A stretch of DNA of 20,000 nt, from IMG/VR virus record IMGVR_UViG_3300021399_000142. The stretch is one strand, 5' to 3'. This document shows, one piece after another, positions 2,903 to 15,791 of the stretch. The notes under the pieces are model-generated. The model was not told the DNA's origin. It did no database searches and saw nothing but the letters and a program-made list of their open reading frames with translations. The position numbers and the translations under genes are program-made. Each line of letters begins with the position of its first letter. The stretch's first letter is position 1. Source of the stretch: an uncultured virus (IMG/VR IMGVR_UViG_3300021399_000142). Lineage: Duplodnaviria; Heunggongvirae; Uroviricota; Caudoviricetes.

Positions 2903-3700
2903 TTAATTAAAAAATTTTTGAAATTTATTTCTCTTTCTTAATAAAAATAATTCAGGATTATTTTTATACATAAAAGAGTAAAGTTTTAAAGAATCTTTTT
3001 TTCCAAAACGAATTGTTCTTGAAGAAGCATCATAACTGCCACCTTCTACCTTAGCTTTTTCTTTTAAGATTCTTAATAACTCGTCTAGAAATTTTTTACT
3101 ACCACAACAAAAACTTGTATTTATTCGATTATTTTTTATTAAACAAACACATCCATCTCCATCAAAATACCCTCTAATAAAATCAGATAAATACTTTTCG
3201 GGAATAATTGTAGTAGGAAAAGTTAAAGTCAAACTTTTTTGTTCGGAACCACCTAAATTAATTAAATCATCATAAATGACCTTACAACAAAAATTAATTC
3301 TTGATGCTTGCCTATCTACATAATCTTGAATAGGGCCTTCATACTTTAATTCTTCAGCAAATTTTTTTATGATATATTTATCTTTATTTTGTACTGTAAT
3401 ATCAAACATCTTCCCGCCATAAATACATCCATCTGCATACCAGAATCCTAACATATAAGCCATATTAGGTGTCCAAGTTTTAAAATAATCTTGATTTATA
3501 TGCCACTTTCTACCGTTTTGGCTCTGAATTTGACTTTTTTCTATTTTAGATATTTTTTTTATTCTTTTTCCATTATGATAACAAAAAGAATATATTTGAT
3601 TTTTACTGTATTGAGAACCAAAAAACTCAACCCATTCTGGCAAGGTTTTACTCTCACTCTGAGATAAGAGAATCTCCTTGTGTTCCGGTGTTATTGGCAT
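2903..3700 (-). CDS. Free-standing double-motif LAGLIDADG homing endonuclease, 265 aa
   Basis: Two LAGLIDADG helices, YMLGFWYADGC and FIRGYFDGDGC. Start moved from 3757 to ATG 3700 (MPITPEHK), which follows AAGGAGG. Confidence 0.9.
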   Translation of the reverse strand: MPITPEHKEILLSQSESKTLPEWVEFFGSQYSKNQIYSFCYHNGKRIKKISKIEKSQIQSQNGRKWHINQDYFKTWTPNMAYMLGFWYADGCIYGGKMFDITVQNKDKYIIKKFAEELKYEGPIQDYVDRQASRINFCCKVIYDDLINLGGSEQKSLTLTFPTTIIPEKYLSDFIRGYFDGDGCVCLIKNNRINTSFCCGSKKFLDELLRILKEKAKVEGGSYDASSRTIRFGKKDSLKLYSFMYKNNPELFLLRKRNKFQKFFN

Positions 3701-3732
3701 AGCACACTTCCTCCTTAAAATTTTGCAAAATA

Positions 3733-4470
3733 TTAGGAATGGATATCTTCCATCCAATTCTTTACTTCTTCCATATCTTTTGCTCCCGCCATTTTCGCAT
3801 GAACGTAAATATCAAAATCTTGTTTCAATTTAAAACGTTCAAATTCATCCATTATTTGATAAACAGTATATTGCATTAACTCATTCATATCTTTTTGCAA
3901 TCCAACTGCTAAGATAGAAGTATAACGACTAAACAAATTTACTTTCTGTTCTTCGCCCTTCATACTAGCAAGTTTCTGTTGCCTCTTTTTAAACTTTTCT
4001 GCAATCTTGTTGGCTAGGGCATCCGCGGGATTGTATCTACCCTCATCACCACCCATACCATTTAAACAAAATATTTGACGAACTATATCCTGGAATTCGT
4101 CAAAGTTATATTCATTGATACTTGACTCGAAATTTTCTAATTGAAGAAGTATTTTATCTTTATTTATTTTAACCTCTGCGTTTGGAAACATAAGGGTTAA
4201 AACCAACATTGCGTCAGTTTTGTGCTTAGCACTTTCCGCACTATTCATTACTGACATAAATATATTAAAATTGCTTTGATTCTCTAATCCACTTTTGTCC
4301 TGCATATTTAGATTATCTTTATTAAACAAGAGAAAACGAGAGCCAATATGAAAAGCTTCCTCTCCAATATAAGCAATTTCATTTAGGCGGGGTTGGTGTA
4401 TTGCACATCGCCCCATCCTAAATGGAATATCGTTTCCTGATAATAATAATAATTCATCTAACTGCCCCAT
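3733..4470 (-). CDS. Phage protein in the head-tail/tail module, 245 aa
   Basis: Long ORF tightly packed in the structural operon, with RBS GGGGAG inside the end of the upstream gene. Function by position only. Confidence 0.75.
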   Translation of the reverse strand: MGQLDELLLLSGNDIPFRMGRCAIHQPRLNEIAYIGEEAFHIGSRFLLFNKDNLNMQDKSGLENQSNFNIFMSVMNSAESAKHKTDAMLVLTLMFPNAEVKINKDKILLQLENFESSINEYNFDEFQDIVRQIFCLNGMGGDEGRYNPADALANKIAEKFKKRQQKLASMKGEEQKVNLFSRYTSILAVGLQKDMNELMQYTVYQIMDEFERFKLKQDFDIYVHAKMAGAKDMEEVKNWMEDIHS

Positions 4471-7657: not shown

Positions 7658-8701
7658 TTATAAGTTTACAGCTCTCTTAAGACTTGTATTCTGATATACG
7701 CAAATTGCGTTAGAGAATACAGCACGAACTCCGACCTTCTTGTAAATCTGAATCTCACGAGAACGATCATAGTTGTTATATTCATCAACAATTGTACCGC
7801 CTTCAAGAGCAATCTTAACTGGCTTCTCTGCGCCTGTAGGGATAATATAAGCAAATGAAGGATCAATTACCTTAACAGTGTTTGTTTCATCTTCATAAGA
7901 CTGAGGAAGAACAACAACTGAATGTCCCTTATAACTAGCGAGATAACCACTGTTCCATCTCTGATTTCTCAATTCATCAGAAACCCAACCAGAGTCAGGA
8001 ACGATAGTTGCAGCAAACTCAAATGTACAATAGATAGTTGACTTACCACTACCATAAGCATCAGCAATACCAATAAGTCTATCCATTTCCTTCTCAACAA
8101 AAGTAGTCTGAGAACTCTTGTTTGCAGCCTGGATGTTGTTAATAGCACCACGAAGCTGCTTCTCGATCTCAACATAGATGCAAGCATCAAGACCTTCAAG
8201 AACAACGTCAAGTACGTCTGCGAAATCTACACGACCATCAAGGAATTCCTCGAATCCGATAGCTGCAGCGCCACCGATGGCGTTAGTCGCTACTTCATAG
8301 CTCTGTCCATCAAGCTTGAATACTTCATATAAACCAGCGAGACCTACTTTACCGATAAACTGCTTAGCACGTCTGCGTGAAGCCTGAGTGATCTTCTGAG
8401 TGAAGATAGGCTTGTCACCTTGATTAAAAGTCTTAATCTCAGCAAACTGAGAGTAGCTTTCCATAACACGTGCAGGAAGCACATCATCAATAGTCTCTTC
8501 CATTAAACTAAATACTGTATTCTTATTTTCTCTGTAAAGAGAATAAGTACCAGCGATCTCCTTAAACTCATCACGAAGAGTTTCCTGTAATTCAGCATAG
8601 CTAAATTTCTTATCTCCAAAGCTGTAAGCAACAGGAGCAGAAGAATTAGCATGAGCTACAGTCTTCGCTAACTTGAGCATATCATTATACTGTAATGCCA
8701 T
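7658..8701 (-). CDS. Major capsid protein, 347 aa
   Basis: Size, position after the protease/scaffold and decoration genes, strong RBS GAGGAGG and a downstream terminator. Confidence 0.8.
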   Translation of the reverse strand: MALQYNDMLKLAKTVAHANSSAPVAYSFGDKKFSYAELQETLRDEFKEIAGTYSLYRENKNTVFSLMEETIDDVLPARVMESYSQFAEIKTFNQGDKPIFTQKITQASRRRAKQFIGKVGLAGLYEVFKLDGQSYEVATNAIGGAAAIGFEEFLDGRVDFADVLDVVLEGLDACIYVEIEKQLRGAINNIQAANKSSQTTFVEKEMDRLIGIADAYGSGKSTIYCTFEFAATIVPDSGWVSDELRNQRWNSGYLASYKGHSVVVLPQSYEDETNTVKVIDPSFAYIIPTGAEKPVKIALEGGTIVDEYNNYDRSREIQIYKKVGVRAVFSNAICVYQNTSLKRAVNL

Positions 8702-8722: not shown

Positions 8723-9394
8723 CTACTGTACTCTCTGAAGCTTAAGACCAGGCTGTCCATCAGGCATTGTATAAACCTTTACAACTACCCAAACCATGCC
8801 TGTAAGAGTCTCACCTTGTGCTGCAGTTACTTTTTCTAACTGGAGAGTCTTAGTGTCTGTATTTTTCTTTGGCTGAAGTGTATCACCGACAGCATAAACA
8901 TTATTACCTGTGAGTATCTTTACCATATTTGTTGTATAAACATCACCAACATTAGTCTTTAAAAGACGTGGTGCAATACCATCCATTCGATATGGATATT
9001 CTGTATGACCATTTAATGTATGTGATTCACCATTCTCAGTCCATGTTGCTGAAGCATTAACACCAGTTGTTTCAGCGCCATCTCCATAACCTGCAGTAGC
9101 AGCTTGAGATGTAACATAGTTGTCACCAACACGAATCATTGCGAAATCCTTATAAGATGTTCTCCAGAAAGGTTCGTATAATTTAATTTCGTTGAATACG
9201 AGCATAGGTTCTGCCATACCAGTAGAATCATCCGCAACAACTTTACCACTTGCATAATCATAGTACATGAATTCTCCGTTTTGAAGAACCTTTACATTTG
9301 TATCAAGTGGAAGACTTGCGTAAATCTGTCCAGTTTTCTGAGCAGATAACTGATTAGGCTCTACCTGTCCATAGCCATTTCTTGTAAATGCCAT
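8723..9394 (-). CDS. Putative capsid decoration/head structural protein, 223 aa
   Basis: Lies between the protease/scaffold and major capsid genes. RBS AAGGAGG; begins GYGQVEPNQLSAQKTGQIYASLP and ends YTMPDGQPGLK. Confidence 0.7.
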   Translation of the reverse strand: MAFTRNGYGQVEPNQLSAQKTGQIYASLPLDTNVKVLQNGEFMYYDYASGKVVADDSTGMAEPMLVFNEIKLYEPFWRTSYKDFAMIRVGDNYVTSQAATAGYGDGAETTGVNASATWTENGESHTLNGHTEYPYRMDGIAPRLLKTNVGDVYTTNMVKILTGNNVYAVGDTLQPKKNTDTKTLQLEKVTAAQGETLTGMVWVVVKVYTMPDGQPGLKLQRVQ

Positions 9395-10839: not shown

Positions 10840-12462
10840 TTAACTCATTGATTCTCTATTTTTGATTGTTTTCTCTGATTTTTGGTCATCTGCTAATTCC
10901 TTGCGGCCGGCGCCCTCACTATCAGAACTTACTTTCGATTGAGGGTTCCCGCTTCCCGCCTTACCTGTAATACGATTGAGAGTATCACCATTCATAGTTG
11001 AACTCATAAGCGGAGGAATGAATACATTAACTAAATCTAAAATATCATTTTCAAAGAACGCATTGGCTAAAATACTGCTTTGACTCTGACCTAACGCAAT
11101 CTGCGGTAAGAACTTAGAATAACCAAGTTGAGTCTGCTCTTTATAAAGCTTAGCTAATTCTTTATAATTATAAATTGTGGTAGTCAAAAGTTGAACTTTA
11201 TATTCTACCTTTTTCTTATTATTGAATGGAAGAATTAATTCATTTAAAAATTCTTCGAATTGAAGTAACATATTATACATAGTTGCTTCATCATTCAAAA
11301 TTGATTTTTCCAATGCAATATTACCATCGGTATTAAATTGCATTTGAGATACACCAGCCTCATTATATAACTGACGTTCTACTCTCGCTAAATCATCGGC
11401 CTGAGAATCCGCTTTAGACGCATCCATATCTTCTACTTCAACATCTGCGAAAGTAGTTAATACATCAACACCAATTGCTCGACTAAGCATTTGAACTGCA
11501 TTATTGTGTAATTGCTGCGCTTCTTCAACATCAAATATTAATTCACCATTTTTATCTAGCGGCATTTTTTGCACAACTATCTTGAGTAATCTTTGCATAG
11601 TCTTTTTCTTATCTAAAGCTTGTGCCTCATCCAAATCAATTATAAGAGGAATAACAGAAATAAAAGCTGGGTAATCTTCACCATTTGCTGTAAACTTAAC
11701 TGTTTGCTTAGGGTCTAGGAGATACCAACCTGAAGTGTCACCAGCAAATTCTGGTGGTAACTTACCTTGTTTGTATAACATATAACCTTTAGAGAATTCA
11801 GCAGGGAATAATTTTAACACCCTCATTTTTTGAGTAGTATCTCTAAATTGGTTATCAAAGTACTTCATGTTGAACTCAACCGCTGGCTTTTTTCCATAAT
11901 TAAATCTACTTCTACAATAATCAACAGGGAGCTGTTGTAAAACAACGCCATCTATTGTTTCAACCTTGTATCCGTAGTAAGCGCCATTAAGTAAAACATC
12001 AAGAGCAATTTCACCAAAAGTTTTCTTTACCCCAAACTTATCAAGTGTTGTAATTGAGTCGTAAAAACCTTTCAATATTTTATCCTTCTTCATTGTTTTA
12101 TCATCAATCACATATGGAGTAACGAACCAATCGTATCTATACATAAAAGCCATATATCTCACAATACGACTATAAATACCGCTAATTCTATAAAAGAAAT
12201 TGCTTACTTCTCGCATTGTTTTTAAATCATAATTATCAATAGCTTTAAGTACAGTGCCTTTGTCTGCTAATCTAGGATTAGTTTTTCTTAGCGCTCCTAA
12301 TTTAAGAATAGCATCATCAAGAGTTTTTGCACCAACTTTGATTTTATTAAAATCAATAGGCGGCAACCCTTGATAACCAGTAGGTTGACTAAAGTTGGCA
12401 TCTTGTTGTCCTGCAATAATATTAAAACCCTTTGAGTGGATTTCTTCAAGTCGATTACGCAA
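10840..12462 (-). CDS. Portal protein, 540 aa
   Basis: TTG start after AGGAGG. Size and position between terminase and protease; ends IPPLMSSTM...GAGRKEL. Confidence 0.8.
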   Translation of the reverse strand: MRNRLEEIHSKGFNIIAGQQDANFSQPTGYQGLPPIDFNKIKVGAKTLDDAILKLGALRKTNPRLADKGTVLKAIDNYDLKTMREVSNFFYRISGIYSRIVRYMAFMYRYDWFVTPYVIDDKTMKKDKILKGFYDSITTLDKFGVKKTFGEIALDVLLNGAYYGYKVETIDGVVLQQLPVDYCRSRFNYGKKPAVEFNMKYFDNQFRDTTQKMRVLKLFPAEFSKGYMLYKQGKLPPEFAGDTSGWYLLDPKQTVKFTANGEDYPAFISVIPLIIDLDEAQALDKKKTMQRLLKIVVQKMPLDKNGELIFDVEEAQQLHNNAVQMLSRAIGVDVLTTFADVEVEDMDASKADSQADDLARVERQLYNEAGVSQMQFNTDGNIALEKSILNDEATMYNMLLQFEEFLNELILPFNNKKKVEYKVQLLTTTIYNYKELAKLYKEQTQLGYSKFLPQIALGQSQSSILANAFFENDILDLVNVFIPPLMSSTMNGDTLNRITGKAGSGNPQSKVSSDSEGAGRKELADDQKSEKTIKNRESMS

Positions 12463-12494: not shown

Positions 12495-12523
12495 ATTATA
12501 ACAAAAATTTAGTTCAATGTCAA
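12495..12523 (-). promoter_or_regulatory. SigA-type promoter for the portal/head operon
   Basis: Minus strand TTGACA (12523-12518), 17 nt, TATAAT (12500-12495): perfect consensus. Confidence 0.85.
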
Positions 12524-12556: not shown

Positions 12557-12922
12557 TTAGTATCCTGCAGCCTTCATAATATAATCATAGTCCATTATCG
12601 CCTCGTCCCAATAGGGAATACAAATCAATGTAATACCATGCTCTGCACAATACCTTTTCTTTTTGGCATCATTATGTTTTTGCTGGTACAAACCTCGCGC
12701 TCCGCCAAATTTTGACTTAGCCTCATAATGTTGAATACCTTGAAATTCAATTAAAAAATCAAGATTTCCGTCATCATCAAAAACTGCAAAATCAAATCTT
12801 AGCTGCTAAAGAGGTCTTCCACTTTCAGCGATTAAATCTGAGAAACTATACTCTTCTTTAAAATTTAATCCAGCTGCATTTAAAATATCTTCAATTTTTA
12901 TTTCTCCTCTGGAAGATCTCAT
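12557..12922 (-). CDS. PD-(D/E)XK (Vsr/DUF559-like) nuclease with one in-frame TAG at codon 39; recoded gene or recent pseudogene
   Basis: Absent from the ORF track. ATG 12922 follows AAGGGGGTG. The 122-codon frame reads MRSSRGEIKIEDIL...SGRPL*QLRFDFAVFDDDGNLDFLIEFQGIQHY...NDAKKKRYCAEHGITLICIPY...AAGY-TAA. The FDF and IEFQG motifs are intact; the TAG is at 12808-12806. Confidence 0.85.
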
Positions 12923-12937
12923 TTACTCACCCCCTTC

Positions 12938-13056
12938 ATGAAAGACCATTCTAGTCTTTCATCTGTGATAGGAGAGACTCCCGCAGTTTGTTGTTCTCCT
13001 ACACAACATGCTTAAATATAAGATTAATGAAGCTTGCTCTCACGGAGGCGAGAGCA
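12938..13056 (-). other. Structured non-coding element: three stems upstream of the nuclease gene
   Basis: Stems at 13056-13035 (9 bp), 13005-12964 (UGUG-UAGGAGA/UCUCCUA-U-CACA) and 12962-12938 (11 bp); the last abuts the RBS. Confidence 0.55.
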
Positions 13057-13146
13057 TTATCTCAAAAAATTAGCTATTCTTTTGTTACCTTCACTAAATA
13101 TAATAAAATTTTTATAATTCTCTTTTACCTAGTCTGTCCAAAAATT

Positions 13147-15791
13147 TTATGAAAAGAACATCATATCTGCTATATTAAACTTCTTACGTTTTCGTTTTCG
13201 CTCTTCTTCCTTCTTAATGTATAAAAGTCCATATACAAAAGCAGAGAATTTATCCTTTTTAATACTTCTATTACTTTGTTTAAGAAGAATATTAACACCT
13301 TCATTCTCCTCCACAAGATTCAACATCTGTGCCTTTAGAACAGAAGTAAGAACAAAAGGACGAAGATATTCATTTCTCTGGTCAGCGTTCATATTCTGCC
13401 CAACTTTTGTCTGTATTAACTTAGCTTTTGCGGCAGACTCGTCTATTAAGAACTTGACCTTACCGCTCGACATTTGAGTCTGAGCATAAGAATAGGCTTC
13501 TGTATTAATAGGAGCATTAGCTTTAATTAGATACATGGCATTTTCTTCTACACCTGGGCCTTTTATTTTCTTATAAAGTTCTGTAGTATCTTCTGCGGTT
13601 CCACCTTCTACTCCGAATGGCGGCAGACTATCTCCAGTTTCTGGATCTACTTGTCCCTTCGTCATAAAGTCGATAAGACCAATACCCAGGCCATTGGCAT
13701 CTATAGCTAGCACCCGCGCCTTATACTTATAGTATAATTTTTTTAAATTAATCGCTTGTACTTCAAAGTCTTCTGCTTCATATGTATAAATATTAACTAA
13801 CGTTTTTAAATCTGCTCCTTGCGGTTGTGGGGTAGCTTTAAATACACAAACCTCAGTCGTACACCCAATCCTGCCCACATCGACACCAAGTACATAATAG
13901 GCTGTTTTTGACGACCTTCCGCTGTACTCATATTCAGGTTGTAACAATACTCGATGTTTATCAAATTTCTCGGCAGAATAAAAAGCGTTTTCTACATCTC
14001 CACTCCAAATGCTTCTATATTCACGATCAAATGAATCATCATTATATGTACCAGAAATTTTAAGCTGATCTACAAAGTCTTCATCCAAAAGTCCTTCTTT
14101 AACCGGCGTTTCAAACGTACCTCCCATTATCATAGCCTGGTCTGGCTCAATAATACTCTGGATTAATAACTCCACAAGCTTGGTATATGCAAACGAATTC
14201 TTCCATCCAGCTGTTGTTATATATACTTGACTTTTGTTAACAACTTCCTCATTATGTCTTGTGCCATCTGGGAGTAATCTATTAACATTAGTTGTAGGAA
14301 TTATTACTTCGTTAAGTATATCGCCATCGATTAGGACACATTCTTCCATCAAACCGCCTGTTCGTCTTTGTCCTCTGGAACTCTGTCTTGCTGCTAAAAT
14401 GTCAATTGTAGAACCATTCTTAAATACATATTTTACATCATCTTTTGATTTCTTAGATACACCTCTATCCCAATTAATCTCATTATTAAGAGGAGGTATA
14501 AGAGTGCATAATTCTTCAATCTTTGCAATAGTAATACTTGCCGCCTGTTCCTTGCCTCCAGTGGTTACGAATAAATGTGAACCAGGATAGAGTATTGCTC
14601 TCAACATAAGAACTAACATCGAGAGAAAAGATTTACTATATGCCATAAATATTCGATATAAAACGCTACTTTTATATCCGTTTTTATAAAACTGCTTTAT
14701 ATTTCTATAAAGATTAGACTATATCACCACCCTCTTTAAAAGATATAAAAAAGAGGGGACTACTTTTTCGAGTAGGCTTCTACTCTACTCCTTTTCAGGA
14801 TAGTCGTTGAACTTTATTTATAAGAGAATGTTTTTCTTTCCGCTTTACCTAGCGGAGTGTTAATATCTTTTGTTAAGTATTTCCATGTTTCTTTTCTTCT
14901 TATTTTAGCTATAAAACTTCTTACAGGTAATCCAGTTATTTGACTTATTTCTTTATCCGTATATTTATTTGTTTTTAATAATTCAATTACTGTTATAGCA
15001 TCTTTTTCAGTATAATGGTTAAAATTTGTACCTTCTCCATTCAAGTAATCGAAATTAGTTAAATGATTTTTAATACTGTGATCTATATTTTGTTTTGGGG
15101 TTACCCATTCAAGATTCTCTAAATTATTATTAGATTTATCTCCATCTTTGTGATTTACTTGCAATTCATTTTGATTTTTAATAGGACTAAAAGCCATTAA
15201 TACCAATCTATGAACACTCTTTAAAGTTGTGCCACCGCCTATTTTCATTAAACTAACTCTATAATATCCATTATTTTCTTTTTTCCACGAAATAATATTA
15301 CCTGTATTTTTATTGATTATTTTGCCCTCATCATTAATCCAATAGCAATCTTTGATTTCAGGGCAAAGCTCACAAATTTGCTTTTCCATAAAAAATTCTC
15401 CTTATAAATCTTAGCTGCTGATTGCCCTCGGCTTTACGTTAGGGGGTCCCAGCAATTAAGTAGTTTTCCTTTAAATATATTACTATATTTACCCCGCCCA
15501 TATTTAACGGGGGAACGTTGCGTACACGTATCTATGTCGTATTACAATTCTTAAGAATATTCTCTGATAAAAATAAAAATGAAAATTTTTAGGGTTATAA
15601 GGATTTTCCTCTCCTTCCGCATACTCATGATTATGCAGTAAATAATCAATTAATAAATCCGGGTATTCTCTGAAGAAAGCGATTAACTGTCTTAATTCAT
15701 TTAATTGCTCTTTAATTCGTTCCTCGGATAAGCCCTGCTTCAAGCCGCTAGAGTGAGAAGCGGATATTTCTAATAAATTTGCTAAACTCAT
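13147..15791 (-). CDS. terL: Terminase large subunit, spliced: exon 1 15791-15507 plus exon 2 14643-13147, 593 aa
   Basis: Joining gives YATFPR|AYSKSF (Walker A-type). Also present: RGQRRTGGLMEE (Walker B region), YITTAG (coupling motif), and LGVDVGR, IDANGLG and KDKFSA (RNase H-like nuclease domain). Confidence 0.92.
14644..15506 (-). mobile_element. Group I intron (IA-like), 863 nt, with an HNH ORF in the P6 region
   Basis: P1: exon CCCCGU pairs with intron GCGGGG (U.G at the splice site). P element AAUUGCUGGGA, Q element GCAAUCAGCAGC, R element UUCAACGACUA, S element GAUAUAGUCUA; P3 ACUACUU/AAGUAGU; P9 CUUUAUA-GAAA-UAUAAAG; terminal G at 14644. Confidence 0.93.
14814..15389 (-). CDS. Intron-encoded HNH homing endonuclease (I-HmuI-like), 191 aa
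   Basis: HNH motif VHRLVLMAF...QVNHKDGDKSNNNLENLEWVTPKQNIDH, a C-terminal HTH-like segment and RBS AAGGAG. Confidence 0.92.
   Translation of the reverse strand: MEKQICELCPEIKDCYWINDEGKIINKNTGNIISWKKENNGYYRVSLMKIGGGTTLKSVHRLVLMAFSPIKNQNELQVNHKDGDKSNNNLENLEWVTPKQNIDHSIKNHLTNFDYLNGEGTNFNHYTEKDAITVIELLKTNKYTDKEISQITGLPVRSFIAKIRRKETWKYLTKDINTPLGKAERKTFSYK

Follow-up and report, generated by a model that had tools for sequence, protein, structure and literature searches.

Recurrent short inserts in a phage packaging-module nuclease gene suggest that ribosomes hop over a break

Natural translational bypassing has been described in very few systems: T4 gene 60, a yeast mitochondrion, and the terminase of Streptomyces phages. 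In PMC10732093, UUA-led bypassing is described for 7- and 10-nt inserts in the gene encoding the terminase of Streptomyces phage phiHau3 and two prophages; with UUA replaced by UAA, mass spectrometry (MS) in E. coli showed bypassing. A 2016 review defines a stop-hop as 9 nt decoded for one residue and states that natural in-frame stop-hops were not then known (PMC5009743).

We analyzed a 20,000-nt stretch (the window) of an uncultured tailed gut phage, in which a nuclease gene between terminase and portal is interrupted by a short insert beginning with TAG. Related phages carry other inserts at the same junction; judged from their sequences, these recurrent breaks, with the rest of the gene intact, suggest that ribosomes may hop over the break. 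The observation suggests a variant of phage translational bypassing that we did not find in print: our literature search, which covered texts rather than the supplements where such alleles could be tabulated, found no report of the nuclease gene or its inserts.

The nuclease gene and the insert in the window

A large tailed phage's packaging and head module makes up the window, with all genes on the minus strand. The gene for a Vsr-like (PD-(D/E)XK fold) endonuclease (12557..12922, −) lies between the main piece of the terminase large subunit gene upstream (13147..14646, −; phrog_2, E 1e-14) and the portal gene downstream (10840..12462, −; phrog_2739, E 4e-78), an order also found in Enterococcus phage H1. 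It runs from an ATG at 12922 to a TAA ending at 12557, 121 codons plus the stop compared with 118 residues in insertless relatives, and is preceded by a G-rich putative ribosome-binding site (12926..12938, −). Its single internal stop is a TAG at codon 39. The preliminary description, which gave no strand and had noted an open frame with a good ribosome-binding site and one lesion, was accurate here. A predicted promoter in the nuclease-portal interval (12495..12523, −), with a 12/12 match to the σ70 consensus and the TG of an extended −10, would uncouple portal from early termination in the nuclease gene, shielding it from polarity.

The terminase large subunit gene is split by an HNH/NUMOD4 gene (15504-15791, 14814-15389, and 13147-14718, all −); this interruption is probably an intron, and Rfam gave no match in the window, the interruption included. 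In relatives the terminase is often interrupted as well, at a variety of sites. The terminase-nuclease gap (12923-13146, −) is 227 nt versus about 65 to 135 in most relatives; near 13037-13056 it contains an inverted repeat, the loop of which is different in locus L001, a relative that also bears an insert. Elsewhere in the window, a 223-aa gene (8723-9394, −) ends in TAG in frame with the next gene, such that readthrough would fuse it to a 347-aa capsid-like gene (7658-8701, −), and a free-standing LAGLIDADG-like endonuclease gene lies among the tail genes (2903-3757, −).

The predicted structure of an insertless homolog, P0001 (pLDDT 94), has a restriction-endonuclease-like fold. It aligns with Vsr endonuclease (PDB 1cw0; Z 10.9, rmsd 2.6, 105 residues aligned) and with the I-Bth0305I catalytic domain (3r3p; Z 10.5, rmsd 3.0, 94 aligned) at 13 to 17% sequence identity, and a Foldseek search with the nuclease model returned no match at E ≤ 0.001. 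On this model, the nuclease belongs to the Vsr/I-Bth0305I branch of the PD-(D/E)XK fold. Unlike Vsr and I-Bth0305I, it is a stand-alone 118-aa domain, fixed between terminase and portal. E7, D41, E56, and H62, which we take to be the catalytic residues, are invariant among 44 aligned homologs (of 120 listed); so is Leu38-Arg39-Phe40-Asp41-Phe42. Leu38-Arg39 start the strand bearing the Asp, after a short hairpin loop, and the break falls at the strand start.

Read on the coding strand, the junction is CCT CTT TAG CAG CTA AGA TTT GAT TTT, as first reported. The 5′ segment (codons 1 to 38, ending G-R-P-L; 12809..12922, −), whose 38-aa product is on record (P0121) on 10 contigs, ends with the Leu codon CTT (12809..12811, −), the proposed take-off codon. 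The 9-nt insert TAG CAG CTA (12800..12808, −; its exact limits may slide by a few bases) comprises the amber codon (12808-12806), which is the sole in-frame TAG among the window's 19 genes, and ends in the Leu codon CTA (12802-12800), the proposed landing codon at +9 from CTT. The 3′ segment, from Arg-Phe-Asp-Phe to the stop (12557..12799, −), holds the invariant Asp, Glu, and His. The three extra codons are missing from all 120 listed proteins (of 3457 matches) and from 79 of 80 viral loci compared (of 462). Insertless relatives read P-L-R-F-D-F at the junction, as the preliminary description had proposed, and we found no homolog with three sense codons there, which would have meant a nonsense mutation. 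By these alignments, the window's TAG is part of an insertion, not a nonsense change.

The 80th locus, L001, has the same 9-nt insert with one base changed (12804), so that the insert is not unique to one genome. Because this ∼96%-identical phage (95.9% over 4994 nt, no gaps, 204 other differences over 5 kb) carries it too, the insert is unlikely to be an assembly error; other assembled contigs over the window's insert agree but give little independent support. Run X1 may be the window's own source, X5 extends just 23 bases past the insert on one side and lists variants matching those of L001, so that it may not be independent, and the RNA run X20 barely reaches the site. Outside the insert, the window and L001 differ at seven sites in the gene, all synonymous and six of them downstream of the TAG (synonymous:replacement 6:0; P = 3.7e-5, or 1.3e-3 with a transition-only null). 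Recent inactivation and assembly error, both offered earlier as alternatives, are unlikely. Of the three outcomes named earlier as refuting the bypass reading, we observed none.

A small hairpin, UUAG-CAG-CUAA, had been described for this segment. It is not supported: the predicted fold of the 31-nt context (−1.1 kcal/mol, z +1.46) lacks that stem, 197 of 200 shuffles fold at least as well, and against an expectation of 0.89, the window contains two copies of the palindrome TTAGC-N-GCTAA with at most one mismatch. A z of −2.7 was obtained for one 150-nt stretch of the window, but insert carriers and noncarriers, taken as groups, do not differ (no RNA structure enriched in 9 carriers versus 60 insertless alleles; P = 0.23 to 0.49). 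Conserved RNA structure was rejected as a common signal, since none is found across the carriers compared.

Recurrence of inserts at one junction

Thirteen phage sequences carry seven different inserts of 4, 7, 8, or 9 nt at this junction: the 9-nt insert (window and L001), TAGC (L087, L090, L222, and L347), TAGT (L346), TAGA (L093), CCCTCGC (L088), TAGCCGA (L092, L099, and L220), and the 8-nt TAGCTAGC (L221); the TAGT and 8-nt types are single contigs each. They came from scans with the flanking codons fixed and 1 to 30 extra bases unconstrained, which gave 6 matches among viral, 9 among metagenome, and 3 among genome-bin sequences, with some contigs in common, and from a pattern of Arg plus any stop, which gave five matches, two of them new and all with TAG. 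The count excludes duplicate contigs and near-copies (L089, L097, L101, and records filed twice). No in-frame sense insert was found at the junction in the scans leaving 1 to 30 extra bases free. Carriers are rare (1 of 118 loci among the matches listed in a junction-blind scan; 2 of 79 in another). Of 22 short database proteins, nine have their last residue precisely at this junction (G-R-P-L or G-R-P-L-R), a pattern that contig ends can mimic. All 13 carriers have 79 to 80 open codons from the junction to the homologous stop, with no further lesion. A group I intron remnant or long insertion was also considered and rejected: none occurs among the 118 loci listed for an upstream-only pattern.

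Independent phages do carry stop-containing inserts here, which had been named earlier as a sign of support. Twelve of the 13 inserts begin with TAG; random inserts begin with any stop 7% of the time. The codon just before the insert is CGA in 10 of 13 carriers versus 6 of 168 unique insertless alleles, and the Leu codon is CTT in 12 of 13 versus 38 of 168 (the parsing pattern excluded 20 of 287 sequences). Neither codon was constrained in the scans, except in the one requiring Arg plus a stop.

Database proteins P0129, P0131, and P0134 are 62-aa forms ending Gly-Ile-Gln-His, two of them on 17 to 18 contigs of up to 139 kb, and may mark another recurrent break site; when viral contigs were scanned for a break after Gln-His, no match was obtained. 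P0169, from a more distant lineage, has a C-terminal frame starting ...L-F-D-S-R-F-D-F, the +1 reading of the TAGCCGA type. Carriers L222, L220, and L221 were binned with Methanobrevibacter or Bacilli, bin labels that are not host evidence.

On a 126-row portal tree, the distribution of carriers needs seven changes, five of them forced by starred branches (five to seven separate places), and a single carrier clade is rejected (p-AU 3e-8; 10 carriers held together in a 34-row portal subset). The nuclease-gene tree without the junction also needs seven changes, of which two only are forced; in it, the window's allele is sister to insertless L002. All 4 rows of one starred portal clade (L093, L222, L087, and L090), with a depth of ∼0.8 substitutions per site, are carriers, and the inserts of L220 and L221, which are sisters, measure 7 and 8 nt, respectively. 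Downstream of the junction, pN is far below pS in three deeper carrier pairs, and synonymous:replacement counts are 23:7 for L087 versus L090 and 3:0 for L092 versus L099. Together with the 6:0 of the window and L001, these counts bear out the purifying selection that had been named as a sign of support. For L087 and L090, however, dS is 0.095 upstream of the site and 0.93 downstream, a sign of recombination, and some of the selection signal could therefore be inherited from intact alleles. Taken as comparative sequence data, these results indicate that the carriers comprise more than one lineage and that their nuclease genes are not freshly inactivated.

The genetic code was examined in G001, a record near-identical to the window (99.9% over 11,968 nt) that adds 25.7 kb of tail genes. 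No gene in G001 is interrupted by TAG, frames of 1834 and 3122 codons included; the window's phage thus has one in-frame TAG in about 45 kb, and two other window genes end in TAG. Because no other TAG interruption occurs in the 19 window genes or G001, the phage uses the standard code, and genome-wide TAG recoding was rejected for it. In the alignment, the window's TAG faces a 3-residue gap rather than a column of conserved residues. Among Leu codons, the window uses TTA most often (221 times). No CUA tRNA occurs in the window, G001, or G008, fragments that lie outside the tRNA region, and one is present in relative G005; a search for the phage's own tRNA region found only relatives at 47 to 56% identity. 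Pyrrolysine, raised earlier as a possible reading of the TAG, gained no support: a "tRNA-Pyl(cta)" called by ARAGORN in G002 is tRNA-Arg(UCU) read out of register and is two bases away from the G003 Arg(tct). By portal, the closest named relatives are Phass-1 (39.6%) and Enterococcus phage EF1 (32.4%), and by this kinship the host is likely a member of the Bacillota; the Phass-1 host is predicted as Clostridia in PMC10607447.

Relatives also vary in their use of TAG within the nuclease gene. In L015 (match 3001-3354), one TAG, and no other, stands at the invariant Trp position of P-Y-W, and the G005 tRNA cluster (L337:4263-4355) holds a CUA-anticodon tRNA adjoining and resembling tRNA-Trp; TAG=Trp suppression is a candidate second way of making the nuclease gene conditional. 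L311, L313, L315, L317, L322, L327, L332, and L333 have in-frame TAG mostly on Glu columns, and L092 on Gln columns; by these alignments, TAG appears to have more than one meaning within the family. In G002, the genome of carrier L090, a Leu-type tRNA (L254:7542-7617) has an apparent 8-nt anticodon loop where its G003 counterpart is normal; it could be a +1 suppressor or a decayed copy.

Proposed routes to a full-length nuclease

We think it highly probable that the full-length protein is made by recoding. With modest confidence, we favor a ribosomal hop as the route, and we likewise infer which tRNA takes off and what the insert is for. In the proposed mechanism, the nuclease gene is alive, and short translational bypassing would carry the ribosome from the last sense codon to the triplet just before the resume codon; in the window's allele, tRNA-Leu would leave CTT and land on CTA, restoring P-L-R-F-D-F. 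Most ribosomes would probably terminate, giving a 38- to 39-aa fragment. With the insert in place, the packaging operon would yield less of its DNase, because any of the recoding routes should be inefficient. Protection of the conserved site from a homing endonuclease, by analogy with T4, is another candidate purpose; no homing endonuclease common to the carriers was found in 1.3 to 3.6 kb of upstream flank of 10 of them.

The inserts displace the frame by +1 (4 and 7 nt), +2 (8 nt), or 0 (9 nt). With all three frames represented, we found no single translational mechanism other than a hop that fits every allele, and in our enumeration of routes only the hop restores the invariant strand. Four-base decoding of UAGN, considered as a general model, fits several types but hits TAA in the window's allele; a +1 slip at CUU-C fails the 8- and 9-nt alleles and L346, whose Leu codon is TTG. 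The landing triplets would be CTA for CTT (window), AGA for AGA (TAGA), CGA for CGA (TAGCCGA), and CGC for CGA (L088). A landing that shares the first two bases and restores the exact family sequence thus exists in four of six types enumerated (null, 0.065 each), a statistic inflated because tandem-duplication inserts such as that of L093 give matched codons for free. The expectation that the inserts are bounded by matched codons therefore stood for four of the seven types; the other three give AGC or AGT after CGA. In these (TAGC, TAGT, and TAGCTAGC; 6 of 13 sequences), AGC or AGT is the only landing for CGA, a two-of-three match at best, and in the 4-nt types the landing triplet overlaps UAG and so must begin with AG. 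By wobble rules, an inosine anticodon would pair with AGC and AGU at two of three positions. Two carrier genomes encode a tRNA-Arg with anticodon ACG, and in the 4-nt types a CGA-reading tRNA-Arg would pair with AGC/AGU. The L088 insert (CCCTCGC) puts no stop after the take-off codon and contains an ordinary CCC-U +1 slip site, and carriers L092, L099, and L347 are TAG-recoded phages, in which UAG need not stall the ribosome.

If these alleles are considered together, a bolder proposal can be made tentatively, though we judge it somewhat less than probable: a minimal amber-hop cassette evolved at least five times at the same codon of one core phage gene, without RNA structure and over 4, 7, 8, or 9 nt. 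Among its forms would be a natural in-frame stop-hop (the window) and +4 hops in which tRNA-Arg(ICG) leaves CGA and pairs with AGC/AGU at two of three positions, no better landing being available when it overlaps UAG; the cassette would tune the packaging nuclease to release-factor or tRNA status and provide a natural allelic series for take-off and landing rules in Bacillota ribosomes.

Each allele might instead make the protein without a hop, by UAG readthrough or +1 frameshifting, an explanation of the whole set that we consider unlikely. In the window, a suppressor or near-cognate tRNA would read UAG and add three residues to the loop; the 4- and 7-nt alleles would shift +1 at a stalled CGA-UAG, at CUU-C, or at CCC-U and gain one or two residues. 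The +1 frame is indeed open through every 4- and 7-nt insert, AGC and AGT are synonymous for Ser in it, and the family includes TAG-recoded phages. But none of these routes serves all four lengths (4, 7, 8, and 9 nt): in the window's allele (L085) a +1 shift leads to TAA, and only +2 would serve the 8-nt allele. Frameshift products would also replace the invariant Leu three residues before the Asp, and harmless extra residues would predict in-frame sense inserts, of which the scans found none. For the window's allele alone, where our data do not separate the two, amber readthrough is a possibility to be taken seriously, if a doubtful one. The product with extra loop residues is predicted to fold well (pLDDT 91), the TAG=Q model keeps the strand register, and the loop is one or two residues longer in 5 of 110 parsed distant homologs (of 150). 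L015, with its TAG at the invariant Trp and its CUA tRNA beside and resembling tRNA-Trp, falls in the window's 19-row starred portal clade. Weighing on the other side, TAG is not sense elsewhere in the window or in the 37.7-kb G001, and the tRNA clusters of two TAGC carriers contain no amber suppressor.

Dead alleles, which we regard as improbable, would account for the inserts as shields of a conserved site from a homing or defense nuclease, spread by short gene conversion, with the downstream sequence looking selected only through functional insertless ancestors. L220 and L092, from different lineages, share an identical ∼27-nt core with background identity outside it, the dS contrast between the two sides of the site in L087/L090 points to recombination, and homing endonucleases are frequent in the neighboring terminase; in T4, according to bioRxiv 2022.08.31.505936, the insert protects against MobA. 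The lack of any further lesion in the 13 carriers is hard to reconcile with this explanation, as are the 0.8-substitution-deep clade, which has no insertless member among the rows sampled, and the gene position kept from the window's relatives to phage H1. Among carriers, the terminase interruptions vary in site and size, the flank available for L090 has none, and noncarriers have them too; dead alleles would also leave the bias toward TAG and CGA unexplained. If the insert were removed before translation, with phage or host enzymes cutting and rejoining the mRNA or with the DNA frequently deleted between short repeats in some members of the population, neither frame nor codon matching would matter, and several inserts are flanked by 2- to 4-nt repeats. 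Still, the inserts share no structure or boundary sequence, Rfam matched nothing in the window, the contigs examined (which drop rare variants) include no deletion form, and we know of no bacterial intron this short; we rate removal as very improbable. Separate translation of two halves that complement each other is scarcely credible, as is an assembly error at the window's TAG. The 38-aa half has been annotated on 10 contigs, but no in-frame ATG, GTG, or TTG lies between the TAG and the catalytic Asp, and the split would cut a β-hairpin; L001 shows the insert in a second assembly that differs at 204 other positions over 5 kb.

One junction thus offers seven natural inserts in all three frames, each fitting a 30-nt reporter cassette, so that hop, readthrough, and frameshift are separable by one MS experiment. 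If ribosomes do hop here, genes with a short stop-containing insert can be functional although annotation pipelines class them as pseudogenes, and elaborate signals are not required for bypassing to arise repeatedly. Under the rival reading as well, it would be unusual for leaky decoding to have converged repeatedly on one core-gene codon.

Comparison with known systems

The Streptomyces phages are similar: short inserts interrupt a packaging-module gene at a conserved junction, and only a small share of relatives carries them. There, too, the insert begins with a slow codon, and the same argument from junction conservation applies; the Streptomyces-type gap of 7 to 10 nt at an invariant junction has its counterpart here in gaps of 4 to 9 nt next to invariant Leu38 to Phe42. 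The nuclease inserts begin with TAG (12 of 13) or CCC, unlike the hungry UUA of the terminase inserts; they come in lengths of 4, 7, 8, and 9 nt, in all three frames and at least five lineages, without supported RNA structure, and in probable Bacillota hosts.

T4 gene 60 (bioRxiv 2022.08.31.505936; PMC5009743) likewise has a take-off codon followed by UAG, and the T4 gene 60/MobA cassette also appears repeatedly at one site of a conserved gene. In T4 a matching codon precedes the resume codon; the nuclease types vary in this and often lack identical take-off and landing codons, with two shared bases in the window (CTT and CTA), identical codons in TAGA and TAGCCGA, CGA and CGC in L088, and only AGC or AGT in three types. 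The T4 gap is 50 nt, in a topoisomerase gene, whereas the nuclease gaps are 4 to 9 nt, and we found no take-off stem-loop at the nuclease junction. No linked homing endonuclease shared by the carriers was found within about 2.4 kb upstream. They are members of neither the T4 gene 60 class nor the Streptomyces phage class.

TAG-recoded gut phages (bioRxiv 2021.08.26.457843; Phass-1, PMC10607447) belong to the same broad group, and several relatives of the window are recoded, but the window's single in-frame TAG aligns to a gap rather than to a Gln column; the word "bypass" does not occur in the main texts of these two sources. The preliminary description had called CUU-UAG-CUA a classic E. coli stop-hop context; that label does not fit, because 12 nt, not 9, would give one residue here, with one sense codon between the stop and the landing codon, unlike in the synthetic stop-hops. 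Like those stop-hops (PMC5009743), the window's allele has matched codons around a stop and a low expected efficiency, and its in-frame hop would mimic readthrough while giving a shorter product.
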